Assembly (NCBI GenBank): GCA_964586695.1
Contig: CAZPGQ010000002.1
Location: forward strand, 6,337 to 70,336
Direction of reading: 5' to 3'
Source: an uncultured Candidatus Saccharibacteria bacterium
Lineage (GTDB): Bacteria; Patescibacteriota; Minisyncoccia; Phycocordibacterales; DATDWN01
Length of the DNA stretch: 64,000 bases
Position 1 is the stretch's first letter. Every line of letters begins with the position of its first letter. Positions 24,543 to 63,313 of this stretch are shown here, one piece after another. The position numbers and the translations under genes are program-made. Below the pieces are notes generated by a model. That model was not told the DNA's origin and did not search any database. It saw only the letters and a list, made by a program, of their open reading frames with translations.

Positions 24543-24568
24543 TGCACATCATGAAATGTGGAAATATA

Positions 24569-25051: not shown

Positions 25052-25211
25052 AATTAAATTTTATAATTTTTATTACTAATTTTTTATAATATAACCTCCA
25101 TAATTATTCGACCATCGCTCTCTTTTCAGAGATTACCGTTTTATATAAACGAATAGATATATTATACGGCTGTATTAGAACTAATAAAAGTACCCCTGTG
25201 GATAAGCCACT

Positions 25212-26423: not shown

Positions 26424-26427
26424 AAAT

Positions 26428-27882: not shown

Positions 27883-27890
27883 TTTTTTGA

Positions 27891-29609: not shown

Positions 29610-29611
29610 AT

Positions 29612-29953: not shown

Positions 29954-29954
29954 A

Positions 29955-30509: not shown

Positions 30510-31151
30510 TTATGGTTCAATTTGTGACTCATCAGTTACAGTTGATTCAACCTGATCAACAGCAGTATCCTCTGCCTTCATATAAGAAATAACAGTAGTG
30601 TCTATACCAGATGTAAAAGTAATTTTCACATTACCATTGTCTTGTAATGAAAAATCGCCAAATGTAGGATTTACTATGTACGGATTCTGAGAAAAAATAT
30701 TTGATTGCTCGACTACTGCGTTATATGTCTGTGCCTCACCCGCCATTGTTAATGTTGGAATATTATTCTGCTTATTATAACTTAACTTTGTTAGTCTAAC
30801 TTTCTTTACAATTAAATCTTGCATGAGGTACAAAATTTCTGAAGTAGACACGTGATTATTTATAATTCTTCTTGCAGAAGTTATCTTAGCATCTACATCA
30901 ACCAACTCTTGCACTTTTTCGACTTGATAGACAGCTTTAGCTTTTTTTAAATCTTCATCTGCTTTACTTATCTGACTCAATAAAATCATTTTGTATAAAA
31001 ACAAGCCTCCAAAAGTAGCTAGAGAGATAACAAATATAGTATTAGAAATTATAGATATAATATTAATATCTCTTACAACATTTGAACTATGACCAGGTTC
31101 ATTTATTATAGATTTCTTAGGAATGAACGATGTTTGGAATGTTGGTTGCAT
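30510..31151 (-). CDS. pilN: PilN-like bitopic pilus assembly protein
   Basis: 213 aa, TM (IFVISLATFGGLFLY) followed by coiled coil. Immediately downstream of pilM. Confidence 0.5.
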   Translation of the reverse strand: MQPTFQTSFIPKKSIINEPGHSSNVVRDINIISIISNTIFVISLATFGGLFLYKMILLSQISKADEDLKKAKAVYQVEKVQELVDVDAKITSARRIINNHVSTSEILYLMQDLIVKKVRLTKLSYNKQNNIPTLTMAGEAQTYNAVVEQSNIFSQNPYIVNPTFGDFSLQDNGNVKITFTSGIDTTVISYMKAEDTAVDQVESTVTDESQIEP

Positions 31152-31237
31152 AAGTTATAAGTAATTATATTACAGTATATATAAAAAGACTATATGCTAT
31201 TGGTGGAAAACTAATTATAAACTATATAAATTAAAAA

Positions 31238-33070: not shown

Positions 33071-36000
33071 TCACTTGAAAGTCTTATCAAGGAAGTTTTT
33101 TATCTTTCCAACAACACTAGTTGAGCTTTTTCCAGTAGAAGACTGATTTGAATCAACAGTGGATGGTATTGCTTCTGTTGTCTTTTGTACAGAGATTGAG
33201 TTAACAATATTAACTGTAGCTGATTTGGACACAGGTTTCATATTTGCACCTCTACAAGTTATCACATAAGTAGAAGTTCTAGCAGGAGAAACTACTTGGG
33301 ATCCTGATAAATTCTTGCTACCAGCCCAACTACCAGAAGCCGTACAAGAAGTATATGACTTTGATGACCACTTAATAGTTGATGATCCTCCAAGTGTAAT
33401 GGACGAAGGTGATGCAGTGATCGTAACCAATTGAGATGAAGGTTCTACTTTGTTTACTGTTGTGGGTTTAACAGTAGTTGCTCCAGTTGATGACGTTGAT
33501 GATAATGTAGTAAATGAAAGAGTGTTTTCTCCTGACAAAACCCTTAGATTACCAGATGCATCAACAGCTTTTATCTTAAACATGTATGTAGTTTTTGGAT
33601 TTAAGTTAACAACAGTCATTGAGTGAACAGTTGATAACTCTGAATTTAGTCCTGTAATACAACCTGTAGATGGACAATTTCCAACAAACTCTATCTGACC
33701 AGTGGTTGGTTCATTTGTCTTCCAATATATTTTAACAGAATTCTTTGTAATACTTGTCTTAGCTACATTTGTTATAGTTGGAGCGACTGTATCAGTAGGT
33801 GAAGCTGTAGTTGTTTGTCCTGAACTTGTAACATTAACTGTTACAGAAGAAACGTACGTGACCAAACCATCACCGAAACATATCATTGTATATTTTGTTG
33901 TTTCTTTAGGAGAAACTATCTCTGAACCAGAAGTGTTAGTACTTGTTGTCCATGCAGTTGCCTTACAACCAGTGTATGCCGTAGAAGTCCATGAAATAGT
34001 AGATGATTCACCAGCTTTTATGGAAGTTGGAGAAGCTGAGATAGATAATGAAGGAAATACGTTGTTGGAACCTGTTCCTCCGGTACTTCCTCCAGTAGTT
34101 GTGCCTCCACCAGTTGTTCCAGTGCCTCCTGTTGTTCCACCAGTAGTACCACCAGTACTTCCCCCTGTATTACCTGTCGTTCCAGTTCCTGTGCCACCTG
34201 TATTTCCTCCAGTGTTTCCACCAGTTGTATTAGCAGGAGTAACATTTATAGAAGCAGACTGAACAGAAGACGCACCACCAGACCCACTACAAGATATTGA
34301 GTAGACTGAATCACTTGTTGGATTAACTGTAACTGTTCCAGATGTTCCCTTTGTGCCTGACCATGCCCCACTTGCTGTACAAGTAGTTGCATTGTTTGAT
34401 GACCAAGTAATAGTAGAAGGATCTCCAGAAACCACCACAGATGGTGAAGCGGATATGCTTGCTGTAGATATAAGCGCTGCTGTAACACTAACCGTTGCAG
34501 ACTGAGAAACTAAAGTTGTATTTGCTCCACTACATGCAAGTGTGTATGTTGTATTAGCTGTCGGACTTATAGAAACTGAACCAGATGTTCCCTTTACTCC
34601 AGTCCAACCTCCACTAGCTGTACAAGTTGTTGCGTTAGTTGTTGACCAATTTAACGATACAGGACTACCTACAGTGACAGATGAAGGTGAGGCAGAGATT
34701 GTAACTGTTGCAAGAGGACTCAGAGTAGTGACATTGATTGTGACTGACTTAGAAATTGATGTTTGACCAGTTCCACTACATGTAAGTGTGTATGTAGAGT
34801 TTGCTGTTGGGCTTACAGATACAGAACCAGATGTTCCTTTTGTACCTGACCATGCTCCGCTTGCTGTACAAGTAGTAAATACGGTTGATGACCAAGTGAG
34901 AGTTGATGAATTACCTGAGTTTATGTTTGTAGGTGAAGCAGAAATACTTACGGTTGGAGTTGGAACAACAGGAGGAATAACTGTAACTGTAACTGATTTT
35001 GAAACCGCTGTAACATTTGCTCCGCTACATGTAAGAGTGTAAGTAGAATCAGTTGTTGGACTCACTGATACAGAACCTGATGTTCCCTTTGTACCCGACC
35101 ACGCTCCTGATGCAGTACATGTTGTGGCGTTTGCTGTTGACCAAGTGAGAGTTGATGAATTACCAGAGTTTATGTTTGTGGGTGATGCTGAAATATTAAC
35201 TGTAGCTAAAGGTGGAGCTGTAACTACAATTGTTGCCGATTTAGAAATTGGAGTCGCATTCGCTCCACTACATGTAAGTGTATATGTAGAGTTTGCTGTT
35301 GGGCTTACAGATACAGAACCAGATGTTCCCTTTGTCCCTGACCATGCTCCACTTGCTGTACAAGTTGTTGCATTGGTTGATGACCAAGTAAGTGTAGATG
35401 AATTACCAGAAACAATTGTTGCTGGAGAAGTAGAAATACTAACAGTTGCTGGAGGAGGAGTAGAAACGTTGATAGTTGTAGACTGAGAAACACCAGTTGT
35501 ATTTGCGCCACTACATGTAAGTGTATATGTAGAGTTTGCTGTTGGGCTTACAGATACAGAACCAGATGTCCCCTTTGTTCCAGACCACGCTCCACTTGCT
35601 GTACAAGTTGTTGCATTGGTTGTTGACCAAGTAAGCGTTGATGAATTACCAGAGTTTATACTTGCTGGTGAAGCAGAAATGTTAACTGTTGCTAGAGGTG
35701 AAGTAATCAAGCTAATTTTTATATTCTGCGAAGCTGAAACTCCCCCAGAACCAACACAAGTCAATGTATATGAAGCTTGAGCATCCGGAGGTGTAACACT
35801 TTGACTACCAGAAGTTCCCTTTGTTCCTGTCCAATCGCCAGAAGCCGTACAAGATACCGCATTCGTTGTTGACCAAGTAATAGTTGATGAACTTCCAGCT
35901 ACAACTGAAGTTGGAGAGGCAGACATAGATATTGTTGGTGCTGAACCAGTACCAACAGAAACAGTAACTGACTGTGATGCAGAATTTATATTTGTTCCAT

Positions 36001-38647
36001 TACAAGTCAATGTATAAGTAGTGTTTGCTGTTGGGTTAACTGTTGCTGTTCCAGATGTAGCCTTTGTTCCAGTCCATCCTCCACTTGCTGTACAAGTTGT
36101 TGCTATAGTTGAAGACCAAGTGATTGTTGCAGAGCCACCAGATGAAACTGAGGTTGGAGAAACAGACATAGAAACCGTAGCTGTTTGATTTGTAGAAACT
36201 ATTGGACCCCCAACAAGACCTGTAGGTTTAACTATAGGTGTGAGTGGTGCAGTAGAAATAGAAGTATATGGACATGTTATTCCATTGATTTCTGGACGAG
36301 AAGTCGTGTCTGAACAAGTTGCTGGTGTTCCAGCAACAGCATAACCATATTGAGCAAAACTTTGGGTATTGGTTAGCCCAGCTACAGGAGTAGATAGAAG
36401 AGAAATACAGTTTGGTCCATATTGAAGCGAATAGTAACCCTGCGGAACTATAGCATTTGCATCTGCCTCTTTGTAGAACACTCTGAAGTTATTCCCTGCT
36501 ACTTGATTATAGTCTGTAACAAATAATTCATCCTTTTGAATAACGCTTCTTACTGGATTTGCGGAAAATACCATACTAATGTTTTTTGTAGCTGGACCAG
36601 ATGCATCAAATTTTACATTTTTTACTAGAGTCAGTCTTGGTAGGTTATATATCGCACTACAAGAAGATGTCCACATCGTACCGTAATATATATTATTGGT
36701 ATAGTTTCTAAGATATGTATTCTCTATTATTTGTGTACCTTGCACATCTGTACTTGGTGATATTCCAACGTTCATACCCTGAATATCAGAATTCTTAATT
36801 GTTATATTGTTTCCATAATAATCACCACCATTGTAACCAAGCCCACAACAAGAAGCCTGATTAGGTGGTATATTTCCGCCTCTTATTACCAAACCATCAA
36901 AAGTTACGTTGTAGCTTGGGTACTGCCAAATACCATTGTCGGAAACATGCCAAATCTTAAGATCTTTAATGAGATTTACCCCTGATGCTCTTGGTGTTCG
37001 ATATTCAGCACCCAACCACCAGAATGTAAATCCAACCGTTCCGGCACCATATATTTCGTTATTTGAGTCCTCTGGAATAACAATAGAGTTACCTTGAACT
37101 ACAGTATACTGGCCTGCAACAGTAGTATCTGCACCCTTGTACTTTGGTATTTTTACATTACCTAAATATTCATGCCAGTATGCAATCCCCCATGATCTAA
37201 AATTTGCAACAACATTGTTTCGCAAAATGTTGTTTGGTCCTCTAAGCCATATTCCTCCTCCTTCGAAACCAAATTCTGTGCCTCTTTCATTACCTCTTCC
37301 TCCAGCTCCGTCAGTTCTAACAACAAAGTTATGATCAAAGACATTCATTGTTTCATTTCCATCCTCTGTCATAATTCCAGCACCAGGATAGTTGTATACA
37401 ACATTGTCCTGTATCAATCCAAAGTGACTATCGTGAATAGTAATACCCCACTTAAACTTGTGGACAGTTGAACCTCCATCTACAGCATTTCCAATCAGTG
37501 TGAACTGATAGCCATTTGAAGGAGTGGTCATTGGACCCATATTGTGGTGCATATGCAGAGGATATCTACCCTTTTGGTTTGTACCGATAGCTACAGGATC
37601 ATATGTTGTACGTCCCATATCCTTGAATGTTGCGTAACGTATATCTGTGTCTGACATATGCATCATCGCCATATGACCTCGTGTGCCAGTAGGATTAGCA
37701 GAGCTAAATGTTATATTTCTAGTTAAGTTTCCTACGTGTGGCAAGAAAGTGATGCTTCCAGCAACATCCCTAGCACCTTTATGGTTATAAGCAAGGGCTC
37801 GATCTAGAGTAATTGTTGAACCAGATATACCCTGTATTGTAAATTCTTCCCATTGAGGTACCTTTGGATAAAATCTACTATCAACATCAGCCTGTCTGTA
37901 GTGTCTTGTATCTGGGATAAAAATTCTGTCCCCAACTTGCCATCCAGTTGGAGCCTGTGCCAAAGAAATAGTACTTTGTCCTGCCATTGGCTCTGATGCA
38001 ACTTTTACAAAAGTTGGATTCTTTGTTGAACCAGCAATTCTAACCTTTCCAAGAGATAGAAAACCTGTTCCCCATTGTTCAGGATCAAGATTTGTATCTA
38101 TTGCAGTGTTAGCGATAACAACCTCTGCTGTAACAGATGGATTAACAGGTGTAGAAACAGTACCTATTTCTAGATAACCGTTAGACATAACCTGTAAGTT
38201 TGTAACTGTAAGTTTTGTATTTATATCTGTTCGGAACTTTAGAGTACCATTTATGGATACAGTGTAAGCTGTACCAGAAGTAGAATCATATGTAATAGTC
38301 TGACCAGTAGGAATAACCACAATATCAGCAGAAGTTGGAAGAACACCCCCAGACCACACTGTCGGATCAGACCAAACACCGGATTTCAAAGATGTAACTT
38401 GTGGTTTTGTAAAATCTTGCGCAAAGTCAGGGATATGATCACCACTCATAACCAAAGCATTAGGCAAAGCAGCTGCATATGCAGTGGAAATATATGTAGT
38501 ATAAATCGCTGAAGTAAGAGAGAAAGTAGTAATGAGTGCTATAGCAACAAACCCGGCCCAGTGAACATGATGATGATAATCTTTTTCATGCCAATTCTTA
38601 TAAAAATCACTGTTGTCAGTGAACCACGAATGTATTGTATTGATCAT
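33071..38647 (-). CDS. Giant (1858 aa) cell-surface protein: N-terminal TM/signal anchor, right-handed parallel beta-helix (pectate-lyase-like) region, Gly/Thr-rich linker, about 10 tandem 85-aa Ig-like repeats with conserved Cys pair, FN3-like domains
   Basis: Repeat unit ...TLTWSSTNATTCTASGAWSGTKGTSGSVSVSPTANSTYTLTCSGAN... is near-identical at DNA level across 34.2-35.7 kb. Beta-helix signatures NVVANFRSWGIAYW and HMSDTDIRYATFKDMGRT. Confidence 0.8.
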   Translation of the reverse strand: MINTIHSWFTDNSDFYKNWHEKDYHHHVHWAGFVAIALITTFSLTSAIYTTYISTAYAAALPNALVMSGDHIPDFAQDFTKPQVTSLKSGVWSDPTVWSGGVLPTSADIVVIPTGQTITYDSTSGTAYTVSINGTLKFRTDINTKLTVTNLQVMSNGYLEIGTVSTPVNPSVTAEVVIANTAIDTNLDPEQWGTGFLSLGKVRIAGSTKNPTFVKVASEPMAGQSTISLAQAPTGWQVGDRIFIPDTRHYRQADVDSRFYPKVPQWEEFTIQGISGSTITLDRALAYNHKGARDVAGSITFLPHVGNLTRNITFSSANPTGTRGHMAMMHMSDTDIRYATFKDMGRTTYDPVAIGTNQKGRYPLHMHHNMGPMTTPSNGYQFTLIGNAVDGGSTVHKFKWGITIHDSHFGLIQDNVVYNYPGAGIMTEDGNETMNVFDHNFVVRTDGAGGRGNERGTEFGFEGGGIWLRGPNNILRNNVVANFRSWGIAYWHEYLGNVKIPKYKGADTTVAGQYTVVQGNSIVIPEDSNNEIYGAGTVGFTFWWLGAEYRTPRASGVNLIKDLKIWHVSDNGIWQYPSYNVTFDGLVIRGGNIPPNQASCCGLGYNGGDYYGNNITIKNSDIQGMNVGISPSTDVQGTQIIENTYLRNYTNNIYYGTMWTSSCSAIYNLPRLTLVKNVKFDASGPATKNISMVFSANPVRSVIQKDELFVTDYNQVAGNNFRVFYKEADANAIVPQGYYSLQYGPNCISLLSTPVAGLTNTQSFAQYGYAVAGTPATCSDTTSRPEINGITCPYTSISTAPLTPIVKPTGLVGGPIVSTNQTATVSMSVSPTSVSSGGSATITWSSTIATTCTASGGWTGTKATSGTATVNPTANTTYTLTCNGTNINSASQSVTVSVGTGSAPTISMSASPTSVVAGSSSTITWSTTNAVSCTASGDWTGTKGTSGSQSVTPPDAQASYTLTCVGSGGVSASQNIKISLITSPLATVNISASPASINSGNSSTLTWSTTNATTCTASGAWSGTKGTSGSVSVSPTANSTYTLTCSGANTTGVSQSTTINVSTPPPATVSISTSPATIVSGNSSTLTWSSTNATTCTASGAWSGTKGTSGSVSVSPTANSTYTLTCSGANATPISKSATIVVTAPPLATVNISASPTNINSGNSSTLTWSTANATTCTASGAWSGTKGTSGSVSVSPTTDSTYTLTCSGANVTAVSKSVTVTVIPPVVPTPTVSISASPTNINSGNSSTLTWSSTVFTTCTASGAWSGTKGTSGSVSVSPTANSTYTLTCSGTGQTSISKSVTINVTTLSPLATVTISASPSSVTVGSPVSLNWSTTNATTCTASGGWTGVKGTSGSVSISPTANTTYTLACSGANTTLVSQSATVSVTAALISTASISASPSVVVSGDPSTITWSSNNATTCTASGAWSGTKGTSGTVTVNPTSDSVYSISCSGSGGASSVQSASINVTPANTTGGNTGGNTGGTGTGTTGNTGGSTGGTTGGTTGGTGTTGGGTTTGGSTGGTGSNNVFPSLSISASPTSIKAGESSTISWTSTAYTGCKATAWTTSTNTSGSEIVSPKETTKYTMICFGDGLVTYVSSVTVNVTSSGQTTTASPTDTVAPTITNVAKTSITKNSVKIYWKTNEPTTGQIEFVGNCPSTGCITGLNSELSTVHSMTVVNLNPKTTYMFKIKAVDASGNLRVLSGENTLSFTTLSSTSSTGATTVKPTTVNKVEPSSQLVTITASPSSITLGGSSTIKWSSKSYTSCTASGSWAGSKNLSGSQVVSPARTSTYVITCRGANMKPVSKSATVNIVNSISVQKTTEAIPSTVDSNQSSTGKSSTSVVGKIKNFLDKTFK

Positions 38648-38737
38648 ATGCTCAACATTATCTCACTCAGAGAAATAAAAGTCTATGAAATATGAGAACT
38701 TATCCACAAAACATTCGGCATATTTAAAATTCCAATG

Positions 38738-38826
38738 CGGAGACGGACGGATTCGAACCGTCGGTGCCGTTTAAAGGGCACACCTCTTTAGCAAAGAGGC
38801 ACGTTAGACCACTCTGACACGTCTCC
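38738..38826 (-). tRNA. tRNA-Ser (anticodon GCU), class II
   Basis: Acceptor ggagacg/cgtctcc, anticodon stem cctct/agagg, loop ttGCTaa, long variable arm, T arm ttcgaat. Confidence 0.75.
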
Positions 38827-38891
38827 AATATAGTGCAGATTATCACAAATAGGCATTTTTTAAAATGTTGTGATATATTTACTTTTATCTT

Positions 38892-38978
38892 GGAGAGATG
38901 GATGAGTGGCTTAAATCAACGGTTTACTAAACCGTCATCCCTTAATTGGGATCGCGAGTTCGAATCTCGCTCTCTCCG
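38892..38978 (+). tRNA. Class II (Ser-type) tRNA whose anticodon reads ACU as drawn (unusual A34). Needs tRNAscan-SE verification.
   Basis: Acceptor ggagaga/tctctcc, D stem gat/atc, anticodon stem acggt/accgt, loop ttACTaa, variable stem atccc/gggat, T arm gcgag-ttcgaat-ctcgc. Confidence 0.6.
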
Positions 38979-39125
38979 CAAGTAAAAATTACTTGTAATT
39001 TTTATCGAAGGAGAGGAGGACTAGCTTTTTGTATTCAAAAAGCGTTAGTCGATTCGAAAAGGTTCTTTAGATATTTTTAGAGCTTGCGAATAAAAATATC
39101 AAAAACCTGCACTGAAACTGTAAGT

Positions 39126-44299: not shown

Positions 44300-44620
44300 A
44301 AATATTGGAAAAGCCCGCGGAAAGCCTCAAAGTTGCGGACTTTTCCTACGGGCTAGAGAAGAACTACCTTATGGACGAGTGTCGTGGATCCGTGGTCTTT
44401 CGGCGTCATACTCGTGCCTTCTGGCACGACCATTGTAACCCTGTGGTTATACCAACGGCCAACAGGAATGCTTCTCCTGTACACACCATAGATGACAACC
44501 TGACGAAGCACTGTAATGGTCCCCACCTCCTGGAAGTAGTCACCAATCTTGAGGTCGCCGAACTTTTCATCCCGAAATCTCTTACAGTTATCCTGCATAT
44601 GCCTCCCTACAGTCCATAAT
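44300..44620. other. GC-rich orphan segment of unknown nature (no confident ORF or RNA assignment). Possible remnant of an integrated element beside the tRNA-fragment cluster.
   Basis: Base composition visibly richer in G+C than flanks. Overlapping short ORFs on both strands (44305-44619 +, 44353-44598 -) without recognisable motifs. Confidence 0.4.
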
Positions 44621-44834: not shown

Positions 44835-44908
44835 AAACTCCGTGCGCCTGCCAGGATTCGAACCTGGGACCCCAGAGGTATAAGCTCTGTGCTCTAACCA
44901 ACTGAGCT
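44835..44908 (-). tRNA. tRNA-Ile (anticodon UAU) by loop reading
   Basis: Acceptor gcgcctg/caggcgc, D arm gctc-agttggtta-gagc, anticodon stem cagag/ctctg, loop ctTATac, T arm ccagg-ttcgaat-cctgg. Confidence 0.65.
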
Positions 44909-44988
44909 ACAGGCGCACGCAATTTTCTTCCATCCCATATAGCTGGTTCGATCGGATGTAATGAAAGCAAGCTTTCGCCACATCCTCA

Positions 44989-55552: not shown

Positions 55553-56132
55553 GTTTAGACATCAACTCTTTGTTCACCTCTACGATAGACTGTTCACCAT
55601 TTACAGTTATAAAGTTGTAAAATTCATTATTCTTAAAATACTCTACTGCAGAAAGTACATTATTCTCAAACCAATCCAATCTTTTTTCAATTTGCTCCAA
55701 CTTATCATCTCCTCTTTCTCTTGCGAGCAACTTTTCTCTTGCCCACTCACGAGAAACTTCAATCATAATCACATACGGCTTTTCCCTGTTATAAAACTTC
55801 ATTGCAGAATTAAGTATTGGCGCCTCATGTGCTCGCCTAGAAAGACCGTCGAGTATCATATGTTCATCACCACTAACATGTCTAACAAAATATTCTGACC
55901 AAAGCCAAATAGGCAAGAACTCTGGAAGAAGACCCCCACCATCAATTAACTCTTTCGTCTTCATAGATGTAAATGAAGCCTCTGTCATAAACTCTCGAAA
56001 GCGTCTACCAGTTTCAATATATAAAGTCTTTCTTTCCGGATCAACACTTTGTAAATGATCGATAAGAATTCTTGCTTGTGTTCCCTTTCCGGCTCCTGAT
56101 GGACCGAAAAATATGAAAGTTTTTGGTGTCAT
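55542..56132 (-). CDS. adk: Adenylate kinase (start at MTPKTFIFFGPSGAGKGTQ)
   Basis: P-loop GPSGAGKGTQA. LID/NMP-binding regions. Confidence 0.8.
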   Translation of the reverse strand: MTPKTFIFFGPSGAGKGTQARILIDHLQSVDPERKTLYIETGRRFREFMTEASFTSMKTKELIDGGGLLPEFLPIWLWSEYFVRHVSGDEHMILDGLSRRAHEAPILNSAMKFYNREKPYVIMIEVSREWAREKLLARERGDDKLEQIEKRLDWFENNVLSAVEYFKNNEFYNFITVNGEQSIVEVNKELMSKLGL

Positions 56133-56195
56133 AAGATGAGTATAGCAAAATTTATACAAACGATAAACGACGGCCACTCCTCCAAGTGGACGTCG

Positions 56196-57176
56196 TTAGA
56201 AACGAATTTCAGACTGAACTGCTTTGCCATTCCAAGGGACTTCTTCTCGAGGAATATCGAAGAGGCCGTACTGGAAGTGTGGACCCACCCAGACACCTAG
56301 GGCTGGGACTGACAAAAGATCCCCGAGGTCTGCTGGTCGAACAACTGGTTCGACGATAGTTTCTTCCGTTTTTGGCACGATGACCGCATGCGGAAGAATC
56401 TCGAGGTTAACCTGTACGGGGTTTCTCCGCCACAGAGGGACTCTCGTCAGAAAACCGACAATCTCCTTGAACCGCTTTACTTGTTCGTAGGAAATGGAAG
56501 CTTCCCTTTCGAGTAGTGAGTGATGGAGTCTCTCAGCCCACTTTCGGTGACCAGCAGATTCGAAGCGGAACTTTTCAGGTCCATCGTTCCATGCAGATCG
56601 CCAACTACGAGCCATGAACGAAAGCTCGTGTGGCACAATCTCACAGGATCCAACCAGCGAAGCCAGCCTCTGGGCCAACTGCCAGTCGGTGTCTGTGTAC
56701 AGGAAGTACTTGTGGTGGTCACCTTTAGTCCTAGACTCACCAGAAATACTCGGCCCTGGAAAATATGGAACCAACTGCCAACGAAGAGCTATGCAACCCT
56801 TTATGACAGTTTGACGGTACAGATAAGTCAGCTTCTCAGGATGCAGACCTTGTCTTATCTTCCTTTGCAGACTCTTGGCCTTGAACAGGAAGTCACCAAT
56901 CGGAGTTCCGGCAGAATACTCTACATTTTTCCGACTGGAGAATTTACGAGCCCAATAGTCGAGCTCCGCAAGCAGGTCACTGTCTGACAGAAGTGTAACC
57001 TGCGGTAGGTAGTACAGACGAACCTCGTCGGACTTTTCAGGGTCAGACTTTGGGTCGTAGTCTGGGAATAGTGCTTGTAGCCTTTTCCCAAACTTAGTAT
57101 TTTCCTTTGCTGGTGTCGGGGTAATATTTCGTAAAGCCTTCATGGGCGATACGAAAGACAAAACTCTCGCAGCCAT
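56196..57176 (-). CDS. GC-rich foreign ORF (326 aa from MAARVLSFVSP...) inserted between secY and adk. Function unknown.
   Basis: Composition visibly richer in G+C than all neighbours (many overlapping spurious ORFs in the track). RBS aagagg 6 nt upstream of ATG 57176. No recognisable catalytic motif by eye. Confidence 0.6.
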   Translation of the reverse strand: MAARVLSFVSPMKALRNITPTPAKENTKFGKRLQALFPDYDPKSDPEKSDEVRLYYLPQVTLLSDSDLLAELDYWARKFSSRKNVEYSAGTPIGDFLFKAKSLQRKIRQGLHPEKLTYLYRQTVIKGCIALRWQLVPYFPGPSISGESRTKGDHHKYFLYTDTDWQLAQRLASLVGSCEIVPHELSFMARSWRSAWNDGPEKFRFESAGHRKWAERLHHSLLEREASISYEQVKRFKEIVGFLTRVPLWRRNPVQVNLEILPHAVIVPKTEETIVEPVVRPADLGDLLSVPALGVWVGPHFQYGLFDIPREEVPWNGKAVQSEIRF

Positions 57177-57219
57177 GAAAACCTCTTTCTGAAATTCGTG
57201 TGAAGAACAGCCTGAATGA

Positions 57220-57278
57220 ATGTTAAACAAACACAAAAACAGTGTCAAAGAATTTTCGTTCTTTGACACTGTTTTTGA
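57220..57278 (-). promoter_or_regulatory. Hairpin-plus-promoter module: 18-bp-arm palindrome (57235-57276) whose 3' arm carries TTGACA (-35), 17-nt spacer, TAACAT (-10), upstream of the GC-rich ORF
   Basis: aaaaacagtgtcaaagaa-ttttc-gttctttgacactgttttt. -35 at 57243-57248 and -10 at 57220-57225 on the minus strand. Confidence 0.5.
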
Positions 57279-57424
57279 TTTTCCGCAATGCTGTGTTCAA
57301 AATTCTGAGGATTTTTGTTGAAGTTCGAAGTTTGCAGATTTTACTTTCGACCAAGCTGTACACTGAGTACTGCGCGTGGAGGAAGTAAAATCGAGAACAA
57401 AGAAATTCGGCGAAAAGACCAGAA

Positions 57425-58696
57425 TTAATATTCTCGGATAGAAACTTGTGCATCAACTCGCTTAATCAGGTCGATTACCACTGATACAACGATAAGCAAT
57501 GCTGTACCACCAACTGAAACTGCTGTGATTCCTGTAACACCTCGCATAATAAGAGGTAGAACTGCAATGAAACCTAGGAACAACGCGCCAACTAAAGTTA
57601 GTCGAGTAAGTATTCGAGCAATATGTTCTGAAGTTGATTTTCCTGGTCGAACTCCTGGAATAAACGCTCCGTTCTTCTGTAGGTTAGTTGAAATCTGATC
57701 TGGATCAAATGTAACTGCTGTGTAGAAATATGTGAAGATAAACACAAGCAAGAAATATGCAATAGCGTAGAACCAACTGTTAGCAAGAACTGTTAGGACT
57801 GCAGATGAAATTGTTTGAACTATTGAGTTAGAAGAGTTTTCCAAGAATCTCAAAATCATCTGTGGGAAAAGAAGAATAGAAAGTGCAAAGATAATTGGGA
57901 TAACTCCTGCTTGGTTTATTCGTAGTGGTAGGTATGTAGATGTTCCACCGTATACCCTGTTTCCTCTTACCTGCTTTGCATATGTAACTGGTATTGGTCT
58001 TTCTGCTTCTGTGATGATAACCACTGCAACAATAACAATAACTGCAATAACTGCGAATGCTAGATAAACAGGAATCTGTGATGGATCAAATGAGAAAGCT
58101 AACTGTGAAATTACTGTAGGAAGAGACGCTACGATACCAGAGAAAATAATCAGACTCATTCCGTTTCCAATACCGTACTCTGTGATTAGTTCACCAACCC
58201 ACATCAACAGAACTGATCCAGCTGTTATTACTAAAATATTTGTAACCAAAGCAAGAGGAGGAAGGTGTGCTATTACACTCTGACTCTCTAGAAGTTTTAT
58301 AAAACTGAAAGACTGAAGTACAGCAAGAGGAACAGTGATTAATCTAGAATATTGCGCGAACTTCATTCTTCCTGCCTCACCTTCTTCCTGATACATCTCC
58401 TTTAGTCGTGGAGACATGATAGTCAAAAGTTGCATTATGATAGACCCTGTAATGTAAGGACCTACTCCAAGCATCACTATAGAAAGCTGTGAAAGTCCTC
58501 CTCCAGAGAAAATGTTAAGCAAACCAAAAAACTCATTACTTGTAAAAAACTGTGCAAGTCTTCCACGATCAACTCCTGGAACAGGAATAGAAGCTAAAAC
58601 TCTAAAAAGAGCTAAAGCAAAAAGTGTGAAAAATATTCTTCGTCTCAGGATTCTATCTGCAAAGACGAGTGAAAATTTATTAAAGAATTCTTTCAT
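57425..58696 (-). CDS. secY: Preprotein translocase subunit SecY
   Basis: 423 aa, 10 TM, conserved SecY blocks. Confidence 0.9.
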   Translation of the reverse strand: MKEFFNKFSLVFADRILRRRIFFTLFALALFRVLASIPVPGVDRGRLAQFFTSNEFFGLLNIFSGGGLSQLSIVMLGVGPYITGSIIMQLLTIMSPRLKEMYQEEGEAGRMKFAQYSRLITVPLAVLQSFSFIKLLESQSVIAHLPPLALVTNILVITAGSVLLMWVGELITEYGIGNGMSLIIFSGIVASLPTVISQLAFSFDPSQIPVYLAFAVIAVIVIVAVVIITEAERPIPVTYAKQVRGNRVYGGTSTYLPLRINQAGVIPIIFALSILLFPQMILRFLENSSNSIVQTISSAVLTVLANSWFYAIAYFLLVFIFTYFYTAVTFDPDQISTNLQKNGAFIPGVRPGKSTSEHIARILTRLTLVGALFLGFIAVLPLIMRGVTGITAVSVGGTALLIVVSVVIDLIKRVDAQVSIREY

Positions 58697-58701
58697 AGTA
58701 T

Positions 58702-59142
58702 TTATTTTACACTACCACCAGCTTTCTCGATAGCAGTCTTAGCAGTAGCTGAGACAAGACATCCTTCAAAACTTAGTTTTTTATCTAGTGCTCCTGTTGC
58801 CAAAATCTTTACCTTTGGAAGGTTTCCTTTAGACATTGTTAGTACGTTGTACTTTACCAATGATTCTGGAGAAACAACATCTCCGTTTTTACATAGTTTG
58901 TTCAATAGACCCAAGTTTACTGTAGAGAATTTTGACTGGATACTTGTGTTCAAGTTCTTTCCTCGTCCTCGAAGCTTTGGAAGTCTCTTTATGAAGTCTC
59001 GGATTTCTGGTCGCTTCTTGTGACCTGCTCGAGCATTCTGTCCCTTTGTACCTCGTCCAGAAGTTTTTCCACGAGTTCCACCTCTTCCCATCTGTCGGTG
59101 CTTCTTGTTCTTTGTTACTCTTTTTAGTTCGTGACTTTGCAT
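58702..59142 (-). CDS. rplO: 50S ribosomal protein L15
   Basis: GRGGTRGKTSGRGTKGQNARAG. Confidence 0.85.
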   Translation of the reverse strand: MQSHELKRVTKNKKHRQMGRGGTRGKTSGRGTKGQNARAGHKKRPEIRDFIKRLPKLRGRGKNLNTSIQSKFSTVNLGLLNKLCKNGDVVSPESLVKYNVLTMSKGNLPKVKILATGALDKKLSFEGCLVSATAKTAIEKAGGSVK

Positions 59143-59153
59143 ATATTTTTAAA

Positions 59154-59735
59154 TTATTTAGCTGGCTTCAACATCTGAAGAGCTTTTATTGTAGCCTTTG
59201 CGTTGTTTATCTTGTTCTTTGATCTTGAGAAAAACTTAGCACTAACCTCTTTGATTCCTGCCATCTCTAGAACAACACGAGCAGATGAACCTGCTAGAAC
59301 TCCCTTTCCTGGAGCTCTCATGATAAGAACTTGTGATCCAGAAAACTTTGCCTTTACATCATGTGGAACTGAACCATGCTTTGTTAAGTTCACCTTGATC
59401 ATATTCTTTCGAGCGTCTCGAACTGCTTTGTCGATAGCGACAGGAGTGTCTCCAGCCTTACCCATTCCAACTCCAACTCTTCCTTTGTGATCACCAATAA
59501 CTACACCAACTGAAAATGAGAATCTTCGTCCTCCAGTAACAACACGAGTCACTCTTCGGATTCCGATAAGTTTCTGATCGAATTCAGGTTTAACACGAGC
59601 CTCTCTTCTTGGAGCGCCTTTTCGTGAGTTCTTCTTGAACTCTCTTCCTCCTCGGTTATCCTGTGCAGGAATAGTAGCCTCTACTGGTAGAGTTGTTGCT
59701 GTAACTTCTTCTGTTTTTATTACGTCTGTATCCAT
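59154..59735 (-). CDS. rpsE: 30S ribosomal protein S5
   Basis: VTRVVTGGRRFSFSVGVVIGDHKGRVGVGMGKAGDTPVAIDKA. Confidence 0.85.
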   Translation of the reverse strand: MDTDVIKTEEVTATTLPVEATIPAQDNRGGREFKKNSRKGAPRREARVKPEFDQKLIGIRRVTRVVTGGRRFSFSVGVVIGDHKGRVGVGMGKAGDTPVAIDKAVRDARKNMIKVNLTKHGSVPHDVKAKFSGSQVLIMRAPGKGVLAGSSARVVLEMAGIKEVSAKFFSRSKNKINNAKATIKALQMLKPAK

Positions 59736-59744
59736 ATGTTTTTA

Positions 59745-60095
59745 TTAAAACTTAAGTCCTCCAGCTCTTGCTCCATCAGCCAAAGCTTTAACTGCACCTG
59801 TATAAATAAATCCTCCTCGATCAAAAACTATCTTCTCGACTTTTAATGCGATAGCTTTCTTTGCCATTTCTTCACCAACCTTTACTGACTTCTCCATCAT
59901 TCCCTTTCCTTTTACATCTCGTGAGTGAACAGAAGCAAGAGTCTTACCACTTGAGTCATCAATAAGCTGAGCAGAGATATGCTTGTTTGATTTGAAAATA
60001 GAAAGACGTGGCATTTCTTTTGTACCAGAAATCTTTGATCGTATTCGAGCATGTCGTCTTGTTCTACTTGCTACTTTTGAGTTTGTTGTTTTCAT
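59745..60095 (-). CDS. rplR: 50S ribosomal protein L18 (start at MKTTNSKVASRTRRHARIR; the track extends to 60155)
   Basis: RTRRHARIRSKISGT...FDRGGFIYTGAVKALADGARAGGLKF. Confidence 0.8.
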   Translation of the reverse strand: MKTTNSKVASRTRRHARIRSKISGTKEMPRLSIFKSNKHISAQLIDDSSGKTLASVHSRDVKGKGMMEKSVKVGEEMAKKAIALKVEKIVFDRGGFIYTGAVKALADGARAGGLKF

Positions 60096-60111
60096 AATTT
60101 TATTTTGGAGA

Positions 60112-60645
60112 TTATGCTGTCTTCTTACCTTGCTTTCGTTTAATAACCTCACCATCGTATCTCATTCCCTTACCCTTGTATGGTTCAGGCTTCTTCATAG
60201 ATCGTAAGTTTGCAGCAAATTCACCGACAACTTCTTTATCAATTCCAGAAACTGTTATAACGTTCTTCTCTGCTGTAACTTTCAAAGTAGCTGGGATAGG
60301 TACATTTACTGGGTGTGAGAAACCAAGAGCAAGAACAAGGTTAGTTCCCTTTACTTCTGACTTGTATCCAATACCTTCTAGAATAAGTTTCTTTACAAAA
60401 GGAGTTGTAACACCTGCCACCATGTTCATAACATGAGAAGCATATGTTCCCCAAAGTGCTCGGTTTTCAAGAGACATTGTCTTTGGAGCTAGAGTAACGT
60501 TTCCATCTGCGATTGTTACATCGATATCATTTTTAAAATTCTTTGAAAGAGATCCTTGTGCACCTTTCACAGTCAAAACACCGTTAACTAAAGTAACTTC
60601 TGTTCCTGCTGGTATCGCTATTATTTTTTTTCCGATTCGTGACAT
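60112..60645 (-). CDS. rplF: 50S ribosomal protein L6
   Basis: MSRIGKKIIAIPAGTEVTL... two alpha/beta repeats. Confidence 0.85.
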   Translation of the reverse strand: MSRIGKKIIAIPAGTEVTLVNGVLTVKGAQGSLSKNFKNDIDVTIADGNVTLAPKTMSLENRALWGTYASHVMNMVAGVTTPFVKKLILEGIGYKSEVKGTNLVLALGFSHPVNVPIPATLKVTAEKNVITVSGIDKEVVGEFAANLRSMKKPEPYKGKGMRYDGEVIKRKQGKKTA

Positions 60646-60659
60646 ATATTTATAATTGA

Positions 60660-61049
60660 TTACCAGATCTTAAATAAAGCCTCTCCTCCAAGGTGTGCCT
60701 CTCTAGCAGCCTTGTCTGTCATGATTCCTTTTGGAGTTGAAAGTATAAGTGCGCCATAACCATTTTTAACTTTCTTGATTTCTTTTGACTTACTGTAAAC
60801 TCGCTTTGAAGTTTTTGAAACTCTTTCTACGCCAGTTATCTTTGGACCATTAGCGTCGTATGAAAGACCAACTTCGATAAACTTTGCAACTTTCTTTCCT
60901 TTCTTTCCAAAAGATTTTATAAAACCTTCCTTCATAAGAACGTCTAGAATAGCAAGCTTTATTTTTGACTGCGGAAATACAACTGACTCTTTCTTTGAAT
61001 CAGAAGCGTTCTTTAGTCTCACTATCATGTCTGCGATTGGATCGTGCAT
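60660..61049 (-). CDS. rpsH: 30S ribosomal protein S8
   Basis: MHDPIADMIVRLKNA...KEGFIKSF. Confidence 0.85.
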   Translation of the reverse strand: MHDPIADMIVRLKNASDSKKESVVFPQSKIKLAILDVLMKEGFIKSFGKKGKKVAKFIEVGLSYDANGPKITGVERVSKTSKRVYSKSKEIKKVKNGYGALILSTPKGIMTDKAAREAHLGGEALFKIW

Positions 61050-61119
61050 TTTATTTGTTATTATATCTGGGTAGTTTCTTGCTCCTAGTGGAGGAAGACT
61101 TGCCTAGACTTCTTTTATC

Positions 61120-61305
61120 TTACCAAGAACTTTTCTTGATTCCTGGGATCTTACCTTCGTTAGCCAACTCTCTGAAGCAGATTCTGCAAAGACCAAAGTC
61201 TCGCATGAATCCTCTTCCACGACCACATCGAAAACATCGGTTAGTAGCTTTTGTACTAAATTTTGGTTTCTTTGCAGCTCGTGCTTTTACAGATGTTTTT
61301 GCCAT
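61120..61305 (-). CDS. rpsZ: 30S ribosomal protein S14 type Z (zinc-binding)
   Basis: 61 aa, [23 protein letters not shown]. Confidence 0.85.
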
Positions 61306-61343
61306 TGATTTTGTAAATAAAAAAGCTTTTTCAAGCTGGGGTT

Positions 61344-61409
61344 ATACTACCAATAAGGCAGAAAAAAGTCAACGAAAACGAACCAGCCGGCACCAAAGTG
61401 GTGCCGGCT
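61344..61409 (-). promoter_or_regulatory. Module A: terminator hairpin agccggcac-caaagt-ggtgccggct (61385-61409) followed by cgttttcgTTGACTttttt-17nt-TAGTAT promoter driving rpsN
   Basis: -35 TTGACT at 61367-61372 and -10 TAGTAT at 61344-61349 (minus strand). Small hairpin agctt-gaaa-aagct + T-run in the 5' UTR. Confidence 0.5.
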
Positions 61410-61483
61410 ATGATGGTCACTGACGACCATCGAGGAACTTGGAACGGGAAGCGACATACTTCTCCAGATCTTGAAGGGCTCTC

Positions 61484-61840
61484 TCAATATCTACCGGATC
61501 CCGATAGTGGCTGAGAACATCTGATATCAATTCGGGAATTTGTTCCATCGACAAATATCCGAATTGTCATAACGTATCCAGACACACTGTCAGAGGATTC
61601 TACAACGTAGTACCCATCAAGCACCCTCCACTCTTCCACCTTGAAGCGTGGTTCTGTGAGGAGCTTACGGTACTTACTTGAGAGCTTCTCCTCCCTCTTT
61701 TCCCTTAACCAGCGCCTGTACCCCTGACCGATTTTCTTTATACCCACCCAGTATCTCTTGGCGAGCACCGTCAGTGTACTTGTAGGGATTGCACATCCCA
61801 TACCAAGTGCAAATCCGAGCAGTATTCCACTCAAATCCAT
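61484..61840 (-). CDS. GC-rich foreign ORF 1 (118 aa): N-terminal TM helix + basic/beta-rich C-terminal domain. Function unknown.
   Basis: MDLSGILLGFALGMGCAIPTSTLTVLA... ; G-rich RBS ggggggg upstream; followed by module A. Confidence 0.5.
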   Translation of the reverse strand: MDLSGILLGFALGMGCAIPTSTLTVLAKRYWVGIKKIGQGYRRWLREKREEKLSSKYRKLLTEPRFKVEEWRVLDGYYVVESSDSVSGYVMTIRIFVDGTNSRIDIRCSQPLSGSGRY

Positions 61841-61879
61841 ATCCCGCCCCCCCTAAACAAGGGTATTCTGAATTATAAA

Positions 61880-61928
61880 AAAGTCAACGAAAACGAATCA
61901 GCCGGCACACCCATAGGGCATGCCGGCT
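61880..61928 (-). promoter_or_regulatory. Module B: hairpin agccggcac-acccatagggca-tgccggct plus gattcgttttcgTTGACTttttt, between foreign ORF2 and ORF1 (near-repeat of module A)
   Basis: Shared about 30-nt core ...agccggca...tgccggct(g)gttcgttttcgttgactttttt with module A. Confidence 0.5.
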
Positions 61929-61934
61929 TAGTAC

Positions 61935-62372
61935 TCAGAACCTTGAATCGAGAATTCGACCCAAGTAGATCGTTGTGAATGATATCACATCCTGAGCCGA
62001 CGCGTTTGCGTCGTATAACCGGATGCTCTTTCCCCAGCTAATGTTCCAGTGGATGTCACCCTTGGAACTTGATGACATATCCACCTCGATGTGGATAAGG
62101 GGGATCATATGTTCAGCCACCACAATATGGTGAGCGCCACCCTCTTCAGCACGAACCTGCACCACAAACTGACTACCGAAGTAGCCAGAGATCGCATTTG
62201 CGATCCTATTGGTGATGTTGTCTTGTGTCGACCGGAGCTTGTGGCTCCGTCGCTCTTTGCGGTACCTGACCAGCTTCTTCTGCTGACGGCTCTTGGCATC
62301 ATCGGCGCCAAGTTTCCAGCCAACGAAGAACACGAACAAATACGAAACGATGAGGTTCAGAAAGATGTACAT
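61935..62372 (-). CDS. GC-rich foreign ORF 2 (146 aa from MYIFLNLIVSYLFVFFVGW): N-terminal TM helix + Arg/Lys-rich and His-rich C-terminal domain. Function unknown.
   Basis: Track ORF begins at a TTG (62477) that is actually the -35 box. The ATG at 62372 is preceded by aaggata. Confidence 0.5.
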   Translation of the reverse strand: MYIFLNLIVSYLFVFFVGWKLGADDAKSRQQKKLVRYRKERRSHKLRSTQDNITNRIANAISGYFGSQFVVQVRAEEGGAHHIVVAEHMIPLIHIEVDMSSSSKGDIHWNISWGKSIRLYDANASAQDVISFTTIYLGRILDSRF

Positions 62373-62447
62373 CTTACTATCCTTGTAGGGAGTAAACGTC
62401 CCTTGACGTATTGAGGAATTTGGGTACCTCAATTTACCACTATGTAT

Positions 62448-62477
62448 ATTATACCACACTTTATATATAAAAGTCAA
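62448..62477 (-). promoter_or_regulatory. Consensus sigma70-type promoter TTGACT-18nt-TATAAT for the inserted cassette
   Basis: Minus strand cTTGACTtttatatataaagtgtggTATAATatacat, directly after the rplE terminator. Confidence 0.55.
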
Positions 62478-62495
62478 GCATATAAGAGTATTAGA

Positions 62496-62521
62496 AAAAC
62501 CGCTCGATTGAGCGGTTTTTC
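62496..62521. terminator. Rho-independent terminator after rplE
   Basis: aaaaaccgctcgattgagcggttttt. Confidence 0.65.
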
Positions 62522-62527
62522 TTAGTA

Positions 62528-63073
62528 TTATTTCTTTGTGTCTGCTTTCTTAAATGGGAATCCTAGGTGGTTTAGGAAAGCTCTAGTTTCCTTTGGATTC
62601 TTTATGTTTGTTACTACTGTAACCGCAAGTCCAAACACATCCTTTAGTTCTTCATCTGAACATTCTGGGAAGATAGTGTTTTCCTTTATTCCCATAGTGT
62701 AGTTACCCATCTCATCCATGTTTGTTCCCAAACCTCGGAAGTCCTTTGTTCGAGGAATAGCGATGTTAATGAGCTTGTCTAGGAAGTCATACATTCTCGC
62801 ACCCCTTAGAGTTATCTGCATACCAACGATATCACCCTGTCGTGTTTTAAATGAAGCGATAGAAATCTTTGCACCTTTCTTTACTGGCTTTTGGCCTGTG
62901 ATTTTTGAAAGTCTGTCTACGATAAGTTCTATTTTCTTTTTATCCTTTACAGATCCAACACCAGCAGAAACAACCAGCTTCTCTATTTTTGGAGCCTGCA
63001 TCTTGTTCTTGTATCCGAACTCACCCTTTAGAGCGTCGAATGCTGTTGTTACTTTTGATTTTGTTGATTCCAT
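62528..63073 (-). CDS. rplE: 50S ribosomal protein L5
   Basis: 181 aa, ...QAPKIEKLVVSAGVGS...GMQITLRGARMYDFLDKLINIAIPR. Confidence 0.85.
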   Translation of the reverse strand: MESTKSKVTTAFDALKGEFGYKNKMQAPKIEKLVVSAGVGSVKDKKKIELIVDRLSKITGQKPVKKGAKISIASFKTRQGDIVGMQITLRGARMYDFLDKLINIAIPRTKDFRGLGTNMDEMGNYTMGIKENTIFPECSDEELKDVFGLAVTVVTNIKNPKETRAFLNHLGFPFKKADTKK

Positions 63074-63094
63074 GTTGGTTTAAGTTACTTTATC

Positions 63095-63313
63095 TTATTT
63101 AGCCTTCTTTACGTTTGAAGCTTGTATTGGCATAGTCTTGTCTACTATTTGTCCTTTTTCTCCTGCTTTTCGAGGCTTCTGGTGAACCTTTAGAACGTTT
63201 ACTCCAGAAACAACTATTCTTCCCTCTTTTGGCATAGACTTAAGAACTGTACCAGTCTTTCCCTTGTCTTTTCCTGTTAGAACTATTACTTTGTCGTCTT
63301 TTTTTACGTGCAT
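63095..63313 (-). CDS. rplX: 50S ribosomal protein L24
   Basis: MHVKKDDKVIVLTGKDKGKTGTV (KOW motif). Confidence 0.85.
   Translation of the reverse strand: MHVKKDDKVIVLTGKDKGKTGTVLKSMPKEGRIVVSGVNVLKVHQKPRKAGEKGQIVDKTMPIQASNVKKAK

Follow-up and report, generated by a model that had tools for sequence, protein, structure and literature searches.

How did two small genes of atypical composition come to lie between rplE and rpsN, in the middle of the spc cluster of ribosomal protein genes? The question is raised by a 64,000-nt stretch of DNA from an uncultured Candidatus Saccharibacteria bacterium (assembly GCA_964586695.1, contig CAZPGQ010000002.1, positions 6,337–70,336), referred to as the window in the following. 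On its minus strand, the cluster runs in the order rpsQ, rplN, rplX, rplE, gap, rpsN, rpsH, rplF, rplR, rpsE, rplO and secY. The gap measures 1,222 nt (61306–62527, minus strand) and contains two open reading frames (ORFs), ORF-A and ORF-B. A first-pass annotation had reported this separation with exactly these coordinates, and had interpreted the segment as a self-contained mobile cassette that split a core operon. We agree with the former and arrive at a different view of the latter: the segment is probably what now occupies a long-standing slot for accessory genes, which belongs to a Paceibacteria clade of the Candidate Phyla Radiation (CPR) and whose residents are swapped by recombination, rather than a recent mobile element.

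The slot is anchored on the left by rplE (62528–63073, minus strand), which encodes ribosomal protein L5 (Pfam Ribosomal_L5 and L5_C), and on the right by rpsN (61120–61305, minus strand), which encodes an S14 protein of the 61-residue zinc-ribbon type (Pfam Ribosomal_S14); rpsH follows at 60660–61049 (minus strand). The interval between rpsE and rplO lacks rpmD, as is usual in CPR bacteria. In windows of 200 nt, the GC content of the gap reaches 0.45–0.54, compared with 0.35–0.40 in its flanks, and the GC content at third codon positions (GC3) is 0.59 in ORF-A and 0.49 in ORF-B, compared with 0.19–0.37 in the other genes of the window. The impression of a GC-richer segment was thus correct, and its genes are non-ribosomal and compositionally atypical. 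Of the two protein lengths given at first, 118 residues applies to ORF-B, while ORF-A has 145 residues instead of 146 (start codon ATG at 62372). The suspicion of a chimeric assembly can be dismissed, as the same arrangement was assembled independently at two further loci, L006 (Logan DRR623196) and L163 (JACCDG010067879.1); a short contig, L005 (SRR10036056), carries rplE followed by A.

The operon split itself is old. The closest L5 sequences among species representatives come from Patescibacteria of the Paceibacteria/Parcubacteria group, the best match being a metagenome-assembled genome named ‘Minisyncoccia bacterium’ (85% identity). Both genes are on the locus in 43 Patescibacteria representatives, in 15 of which they are at least 600 nt apart, and the gaps contain diverse genes, for transmembrane (TM) proteins, a lipoprotein or pairs of extracytoplasmic function (ECF) sigma and anti-sigma factors; in bacteria of other phyla found in the same search, rplE and rpsN are 10–50 nt apart. 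Five loci with L5 identities of 67–85% (L018, L019, L020, L021 and L023) share a hairpin at the end of rplE, and a TTGAC(T/A)-17-TAG(T/G)AT motif with a small leader hairpin before rpsN. In L023, terminator and rpsN promoter are present although the gap has only 121 nt and no ORF. The split is therefore old and clade-wide and not due to the present insert, and the idea that a cassette broke up a contiguous operon finds no support. A literature search found no description of such a slot in Patescibacteria.

Within the window, the slot lies between a terminator and a promoter-like site. Behind rplE lies an intrinsic terminator with a 13-bp stem and a U run (62493–62522, minus strand; −20.3 kcal/mol, z = −9.6), which is kept in all conspecific loci and in L018. 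It is followed by a promoter-like site, P1 (62448–62477, minus strand), which reads TTGACT-18-TGgTATAAT, agrees with the consensus at 11 of 12 positions, carries the extended TG and is the top match in a 10-kb scan. P1 is conserved upstream of A, of an alternative slot gene termed C and of the slot gene of L018, and would drive the first gene in the slot. ORF-A and ORF-B are each followed by a hairpin that is predicted to terminate their transcription: H1 (61900–61928, minus strand; −25.4 kcal/mol, z = −5.0) and H2 (61384–61410, minus strand; −24.0 kcal/mol, z = −4.1). The tails of the rplE hairpin, H1 and H2 read UUUUUCU, GAUUCGUUUUCGUU and GGUUCGUUUUCGUU, respectively, with interrupted U tracts in the latter two, so that all three hairpins have the GC-rich stem-loop (−20 to −25 kcal/mol) and the U-rich tract of intrinsic terminators. 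The first-pass annotation had noted these putative signals, including a hairpin-TTGACT module after each ORF, and all of them are present.

The module deserves particular attention. Its junction core, TTCGTTTTCGTTGACTTTTTT, occurs once at the left edge of a 515-nt unit containing ORF-B (61877–61897, minus strand) and a second time together with the rpsN promoter (61344–61382, minus strand). Here, the −35 box TTGACT (61367–61372), a 17-nt spacer and TG-n-TAGTAT (61344–61349) form the sequence TTGACT-17-TGgTAGTAT at 61372–61344, and the earlier proposal that the last module supplies the −35 box of rpsN is borne out. In loci with A only, the junction core continues directly into the −10 box of rpsN. 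The rpsN promoter is conserved in L018–L023 and L220, and the weak leader hairpin behind it, AGCUUgaaaAAGCU followed by a U run (61324–61337, minus strand; −4.5 kcal/mol), has counterparts of a similar kind in L018, L021 and L220. The complete direct repeat spans 32 nt with 97% identity, its copies being 515 nt apart and bracketing ORF-B. The junction 19-mer CGTTTTCGTTGACTTTTTT is found exactly twice in the 64 kb, where 0.06 copies would be expected even with three mismatches.

Outside the window, a stem of the type AGCCGGC...GCCGGCT, followed by G(A/G)TTCG...TTGACT, precedes rpsN in L020, L220 and L224, whose L5 proteins are 74–76% identical to that of the window; the H1-type stem is also found 3' of A homologs in L002, L220 and L224. 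The module is therefore an inherited regulatory junction, an ancestral combination of slot-gene terminator and rpsN −35 box, and not the end of a mobile element; it is doubled in the window because two genes are stacked there. A search for further copies added little to the two in the window. The pattern used to scan metagenomes, CKWTTTCGTTGACTTTTTT, is too unspecific, and nearly all of the matches listed are chance occurrences, the true ones being L120 (on the same contig as L013) and L163. In a viral collection, the same pattern gave only two chance matches.

ORF-A (61935–62372, minus strand) encodes a single-pass membrane protein of a small unnamed family that is tied to one genomic position. 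In an exhaustive profile search against 1.84 billion cluster representatives, six further real clusters were detected (E = 1.9e-17 to 5e-4); a seventh match, a eukaryotic channel, aligned on the TM segment and the basic stretch only and was judged spurious from its sequence. A word-indexed search with a wider family profile yielded no additional members. All four remote members with visible genomic context (L220, L221, L222 and L224) are located between rplE and rpsN. The A family has thus been resident in the slot since the divergence of lineages with about 74% L5 identity, and ORF-A is no newcomer. Of the relatives, L224 also carries a Cas1 gene (56–727), about 1 kb upstream of rpsS. Family members are characterized by a TM segment ending in GW, a basic helix with the pattern (S/T)Q-x-N-x3-RI-x-N and a sheet with the motifs VDM(F) and GG-x-I-x-W; R41, N52, R56, I57, N59, V97 and D98 are invariant. 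ORF-A shows these hallmarks together with the position between rplE and rpsN.

Three variants of A with 74–77% protein identity differ by 74–86 substitutions, with ratios of nonsynonymous to synonymous substitution rates (dN/dS) of 0.22–0.26; ORF-A is under purifying selection. At the same time, A homologs are always GC-richer than their hosts (GC3 of 0.55–0.71 versus 0.29–0.44), across deep divergence. A high GC content has thus stayed with the family over time and is more than the mark of a recent arrival. If the segment were a recent insert, as had been argued, one would not expect the same genes in the same place with host-like composition in relatives; this expectation is contradicted in one half, as the family does occupy the position in relatives, and holds in the other, as its composition is never host-like.

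An AlphaFold model of ORF-A (pLDDT, the predicted local distance difference test score, of 80) shows a helix at residues 2–68, a five-stranded sheet and a C-terminal helix. The long helix is predicted to combine a membrane anchor with an extended basic helix, and the sheet domain to be cytoplasmic, with the N-terminus outside and the C-terminus inside (N-out/C-in). Structure searches with this model returned only generic two-layer α+β folds with at most 12% sequence identity, and a sequence search of the PDB with the family profile gave no match. Scans of A, B, C and a further ORF between secY and adk against Pfam, NCBIfam, PHROGs and PADLOC revealed nothing above noise, and none of 50,697 phage records was matched by A or B in tblastn.

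The A-family genes also share a 5' leader (62373–62447, minus strand), which consists of GGUAAAU, a first hairpin (62410–62433, loop GUACC), a second hairpin (62396–62409) and the Shine-Dalgarno sequence AAGGA. In an alignment of eight loci, the first helix is paired in 96% of cells, three of its seven pairs show compensatory changes, and the covariation score exceeds those of all 500 shuffles. The leader of about 75 nt is, along with the promoter, common to L220, L221, L222 and L224, and is found before both A and C genes. A search of the region 55900–63200 against Rfam gave only sub-threshold, terminator-like matches and no known RNA family in the leaders. This leader is a candidate for a new cis-regulatory RNA.

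ORF-B (61484–61840, minus strand) has 118 residues, with a basic helix and a sheet of four strands behind its TM anchor. It is a species-restricted ORFan, with a single cluster of homologs in a word-indexed search of 5.8 billion sequences. The structural model is weak (pLDDT 56), too weak for a fold search, and its dN/dS of 0.30 derives from only eight changes. In comparisons of A, B and C by BLASTP and hhalign, no homology was seen for ORF-B (hhalign probability of 0.2 against the A family). Gene C, with 134 residues, has only the TM-GW motif in common with the A family (hhalign probability 37%). An alternative-frame ORF of 45 codons (61417–61554, minus strand), with a helical-peptide-like product, overlaps the 3' end of ORF-B and ends 13 nt before H2; in L004, this stretch differs by about 19% and contains a stop. 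One might speculate that it is a frame-shifted remnant of the C-terminal helix of a longer ancestral B, the probability of its chance occurrence being about 0.1.

Despite their different sequences, the slot proteins exhibit a common layout. In A, B and C, and likewise in the proteins encoded in the L018 and L020 slots, a hydrophobic helix at residues 1–26 has no Lys or Arg before it and 7–12 Lys or Arg in the following 30 residues. An N-terminal TM segment with a basic tail had been recognized early on in ORF-A and ORF-B, and this description stands. By the positive-inside rule, this distribution predicts an N-out/C-in topology with a cytoplasmic folded part, which argues against a holin or a secreted effector. 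A holin was also considered in its own right and rejected, given the soluble domain of about 80–100 residues that is predicted to be cytoplasmic, the absence of an endolysin nearby and the lack of a PHROG match. The holin- or toxin-like role suggested by the first-pass annotation hence finds no support: a domain of about 80 residues is predicted to reside in the cytoplasm, and PHROG, PADLOC and phage searches gave no match.

The most direct view of the slot comes from conspecific strains. The L5 protein of the window recurs with 100% identity in 11 other assemblies, among which the slot content varies, and S14 is identical wherever the contig reaches rpsN. The combination of A and B is found in L006 as in the window, and L163 has the same A-to-B junction. 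Six loci (L004, L010, L012, L013, L015 and L016) have B only; L009, L011, L014 and L017 have only the unrelated 134-residue gene C; and three strains with L5 identities of 86–94% (L001–L003) have only a variant of A, A'. The ORFs are intact in all copies. Turnover of the gap content between strains, which a comparison of the junction in relatives was meant to reveal, is therefore real. A and B also occur separately and thus do not form an obligate pair, which speaks against the self-contained mobile unit proposed at first, as do the lack of terminal inverted repeats and the absence of recombinases and transposases from the ten ORFs scanned.

Throughout these strains, the junctions of the variable content are constant: on the left, it begins after the rplE terminator or the P1 leader, and on the right, it ends at TTCGTTGACTTTTTT. 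A third hairpin, H3, is found after C in some loci, after a divergent A-family gene in L221 and before B in the loci with B only. The conspecific flanks are 96.5–99.7% identical at the nucleotide level, in a mosaic pattern. Compared with L010, the window has two mismatches in about 700 nt over the tract of ORF-B and rpsN (61892–61100), while rpsH–rplF beyond this tract is 5–6% divergent, the sequence further on about 1% and secY 4–5%. Compared with L006, it is identical except for rplE, which is 3.3% divergent. The genes themselves tell discordant histories. Relative to L001, the synonymous divergence (dS) is 0.54 for A and 1.50 for L5, such that A is less diverged; relative to L002 and L003, it is 0.59 for A and 0.26 for L5, such that A is more diverged. 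L221 combines an L5 of 88.5% identity and a near-identical leader with an A homolog of only 35% identity and H3 in place of H1. Together, the mosaic flanks and the discordant gene histories point to homologous recombination via the conserved flanks.

We therefore envisage the following scenario. The slot lies between the rplE terminator and the rpsN promoter, at a point where the spc cluster is already divided in related species, and because of this division, genes placed there should cause no polarity. Each resident has the layout of a transcription unit of its own, composed of a promoter-like site, a leader, an ORF and a GC hairpin with a U-rich tail, and in the repeated module, the terminator of a unit directly adjoins the −35 box that belongs to the following promoter. 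ORF-B is stacked behind ORF-A as a 515-nt unit bounded by the 32-nt direct repeat. Content would be exchanged by homologous recombination without a need for dedicated mobility machinery, with the conserved ribosomal genes as anchors, aided by P1 and the leader on the left and by the hairpin/TTGACT junction on the right. The stack seen in the window could have arisen by one crossover in the 21–32-nt junction between an A-type and a B-type chromosome and another one downstream; alternatively, it may have formed by site-specific integration at the junction. The slot proteins would be held in the membrane by an N-terminal anchor helix in N-out/C-in orientation, with their basic helix and small domain facing the cytoplasm.

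How does this compare with the notion of a recently inserted mobile or selfish cassette, be it a transposon, an integron-like cassette or a phage moron, that brought its own promoter and terminator into a contiguous rplE-rpsN-rpsH operon? Such a cassette would account for the atypical composition, the putative expression signals, the differences in content between strains and the location of the B unit between copies of a 32-nt direct repeat, a pattern expected from integration at a core site. We nevertheless consider it quite improbable. The split extends across the clade and includes gaps that have no gene, and the A family is found at the site across lineages with 74–88% L5 identity. No inverted repeats flank the segment 61306–62527, where only the hairpins and the direct repeat around ORF-B are seen; a scan that covered the window's ten larger non-ribosomal ORFs detected no recombinase or transposase family, and the neighboring genes are ribosomal. 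Only two copies of the module exist in the 64 kb, phage searches gave no matches, and each hairpin has a perfect GC stem and a U tail, as in terminators and unlike attC sites. A transposon, an insertion sequence or a miniature inverted-repeat transposable element (MITE) was accordingly rejected, for want of flanking inverted repeats and of a transposase in the ORFs scanned. An integron array comes closer in appearance, as here, too, ORFs are stacked, with a hairpin of varying sequence (H1, H2 and H3) and a short junction of conserved sequence behind each of them. Yet attC sites are imperfect hairpins with extrahelical bases and core sites of the type RYYYAAC / GTTRRRY, and integron cassettes lack promoters. 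At this locus, the stems are perfect or near-perfect with U tails, promoter-like sites are present, GTTGACT has a C at an R position of GTTRRRY, rplE is directly upstream and the scanned ORFs contain no recombinase domain, so that this candidate was rejected as well.

A less remote, but in our opinion still unlikely, explanation is that the slot proteins are conserved partners of translation or secretion, for instance membrane tethers of the ribosome or of SecY-associated processes whose co-regulation via the leader RNA retains them among the ribosomal genes, and that A, B and C result from the very fast divergence of a single ancestral gene rather than from replacement. It draws on the long association of the A family with ribosomal genes and secY, on the covarying leader shared by A and C, on the common architecture with a highly basic helix that could bind RNA, and on the TM-GW motif common to C and the A family. 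It is difficult to reconcile with the lack of similarity between ORF-B and the A family, with strains that have identical ribosomal proteins and no A, and with gaps that are empty in L021 and L023 or house a lipoprotein or an ECF sigma/anti-sigma pair elsewhere; moreover, inertia alone can conserve a position in a rarely rearranged cluster. It is highly improbable that ORF-A and ORF-B form a functional pair, such as toxin and immunity protein, holin and partner or two membrane effectors: L002, L003, L220 and L224 have A without B, the six loci named above have B without A, each gene has a separate putative terminator, both products are predicted to be C-in with cytoplasmic domains, and neither an endolysin nor a PADLOC or PHROG match was found. 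In particular, a toxin-immunity or toxin-antitoxin pair was rejected on its obligate co-occurrence, which the A-only and B-only loci contradict. We give just as little credence to non-functional DNA in the form of decaying pseudogenes or an assembly artifact. ORF-B might raise this thought, with its possibly frame-shifted C-terminus, its poor structural model and its substitutions that are too few for a selection test; but the dN/dS of about 0.25 for A over 74–86 substitutions, its confident fold, the recurrence of the arrangement in independent assemblies and the intact ORFs in all copies point in the opposite direction.

Several observations also weigh against the accessory-slot explanation that we prefer. 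The activity of the promoters and terminators is something we infer from sequence, and promoter-like sites are not enriched in the 10-kb region relative to shuffled sequences (20 found versus 17.9 expected). In the B-only loci, ORF-B has no obvious −10 box. The 32-nt direct repeat around it fits site-specific integration, too, and the genome may contain further copies of the module elsewhere. Simple vertical residence does not account for slot genes that have stayed GC-richer than their hosts. Finally, with regard to a protective function, PADLOC, PHROGs and phage searches came back empty, and the fold matches are generic.

Among known systems, replacement-type flexible genomic islets offer a close parallel. 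These are flanked by core genes and include O-antigen and pilin glycosylation loci. The slot shares with them the fixed site, the conserved and mosaic flanks and the non-homologous alternatives in conspecific strains; it differs in its small size of 0.7–1.2 kb with one or two genes, its location in a ribosomal operon and the predicted cytoplasmic orientation of its products. The locus thus behaves like a miniature replacement-type genomic islet. It also evokes the morons of lambdoid and other phages, autonomous promoter-ORF-terminator units of deviant composition that sit between conserved genes (the Hendrix/Juhala concept). Like morons, the slot units seem to consist of one ORF with a sigma-70-like promoter and an intrinsic terminator, deviate in composition and are present or absent between close relatives without mobility genes. 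Unlike morons, they are found in a bacterial ribosomal cluster rather than in a phage or prophage, one of the resident families is anciently bound to its site, and no phage homologs were detected; the neighbors are ribosomal genes, secY, adk and map, with no PHROG or phage matches.

In Gammaproteobacteria and Bacilli, the ribosomal cluster has been altered mainly by insertions of a few genes between operons, as a first step to disconnecting them, and the rplE-rpsN-rpsH segment can be replaced by homologous recombination while its neighbors are left undisturbed (PMC8046335). The slot is similar in that few genes are inserted in a conserved cluster and the same segment is exchanged. It is dissimilar in that the break lies inside spc at the rplE/rpsN boundary, is stable across the clade and hosts polymorphic ORFan membrane proteins. 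On the protein level, ZipA is a bitopic N-out/C-in tether with a small cytoplasmic α+β domain, and YqjD/ElaB are ribosome-binding membrane proteins. The single anchor and the charged or basic segment of the slot proteins may be likened to either, as a resemblance in topology and concept only.

What could such proteins be good for? As a tentative proposal, they might be interchangeable, strain-variable membrane tethers under frequency-dependent selection, serving for example in immunity or exclusion against phages or competitors. The PADLOC-DB defense models gave no match at E ≤ 0.1 for A, B, C, the slot ORF of L018 or the secY/adk ORF.

The rplE/rpsN gap is not the only place of this kind. A second one in the window lies between secY and adk and contains a GC-rich ORF of 326 residues (56196–57176, minus strand, start codon ATG at 57176, with the region extending to 57269; GC3 0.49). 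It is preceded by a hairpin with a 19-bp stem containing TTGACA and followed by another hairpin, and had no family match in Pfam, NCBIfam, PHROGs or PADLOC. It is 35% identical to an ORF in the secY/adk slot of L220 (E = 1e-31), while the conspecific L009 and L011 have unrelated ORFs at this site, all of them GC-rich. Relatives have extra ORFs at tuf/rpsJ, at rplB/rpsS and after map, and those of L009 (2409–2975, 6413–6751 and 17087–17386) and L012 (323–718) are GC-rich hypothetical ORFs (GC3 0.44–0.58). The ribosomal super-operon may thus contain several accessory slots. One could go further and picture the super-operon as a string of docking slots (tuf/rpsJ, rplB/rpsS, rplE/rpsN, secY/adk and after map), in which ribosomal genes serve as homology arms and GC-rich ORFans move between strains and species without mobility genes; their GC excess would be the signature of GC-biased gene conversion or of a GC-richer gene pool, and the A family with its covarying leader would represent a new, translation-wired membrane factor. 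We regard this extended picture as speculative and rather unlikely.

Other features of the region are recorded here for completeness. Close to the secY/adk slot lies a MITE-like element of about 125 nt (57300–57425, minus strand; inverted termini TCTG.GGTCTTTT ... AAAAATCCTC.CAGA), which is present as a single copy in the window. Such elements are found after secY in the window and in L011 (6351–6501) and after rpsN in L222 (804–915; 80% identity), and L004 has a similar-ended element after rpsN (approximately 1660–1790). Next to a tRNA-Ile(TAT) gene (44842–44916, ARAGORN), a GC-rich ORF of 104 residues (44305–44619, plus strand; GC 0.50, GC3 0.55) without a PADLOC match may be a further ORFan of the compositional class of the slot genes. 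ARAGORN also predicted a divergent pair of tRNA-Met genes (14699–14925), and a tRNA-Ser with the unusual anticodon ACT that is divergent from a tRNA-Ser(GCT) (38737–38979). A giant repetitive ORF rich in Gly, Ala and Thr (1 to about 7600, minus strand; GC about 0.50, GC skew about −0.4) runs off the edge of the window and contains hundreds of degenerate, 9-nt-phased repeats; it accounts for the high GC content with which the window opens and is unrelated to the rplE/rpsN slot. A protein of 1,858 residues (33071–38647, minus strand) has about seven tandem domain repeats of 243 nt (81 residues), and a type IV pilus cluster (20744–32350) includes three tandem pilin-like genes (23416–25051, minus strand) with a period of 608 nt and 68–89% identity.

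The most conserved gene cluster of bacteria is thus not untouchable in the CPR: a break inside spc that is stable across the clade appears to provide a safe harbor for strain-variable genes. It has also brought to light a new protein family of very narrow distribution that keeps to one genomic position, along with a candidate leader RNA, and it poses a compositional puzzle, in that the hosts are AT-rich while their slot genes have remained GC-rich through long divergence. Where ribosomal genes from such contigs are concatenated for phylogenomics, pipelines should allow for recombination mosaics at this locus. Most known mobile elements are, to our knowledge, missing from CPR bacteria, which are uncultured; recombination with ribosomal genes as anchors may therefore be an important route by which they acquire and exchange accessory genes.

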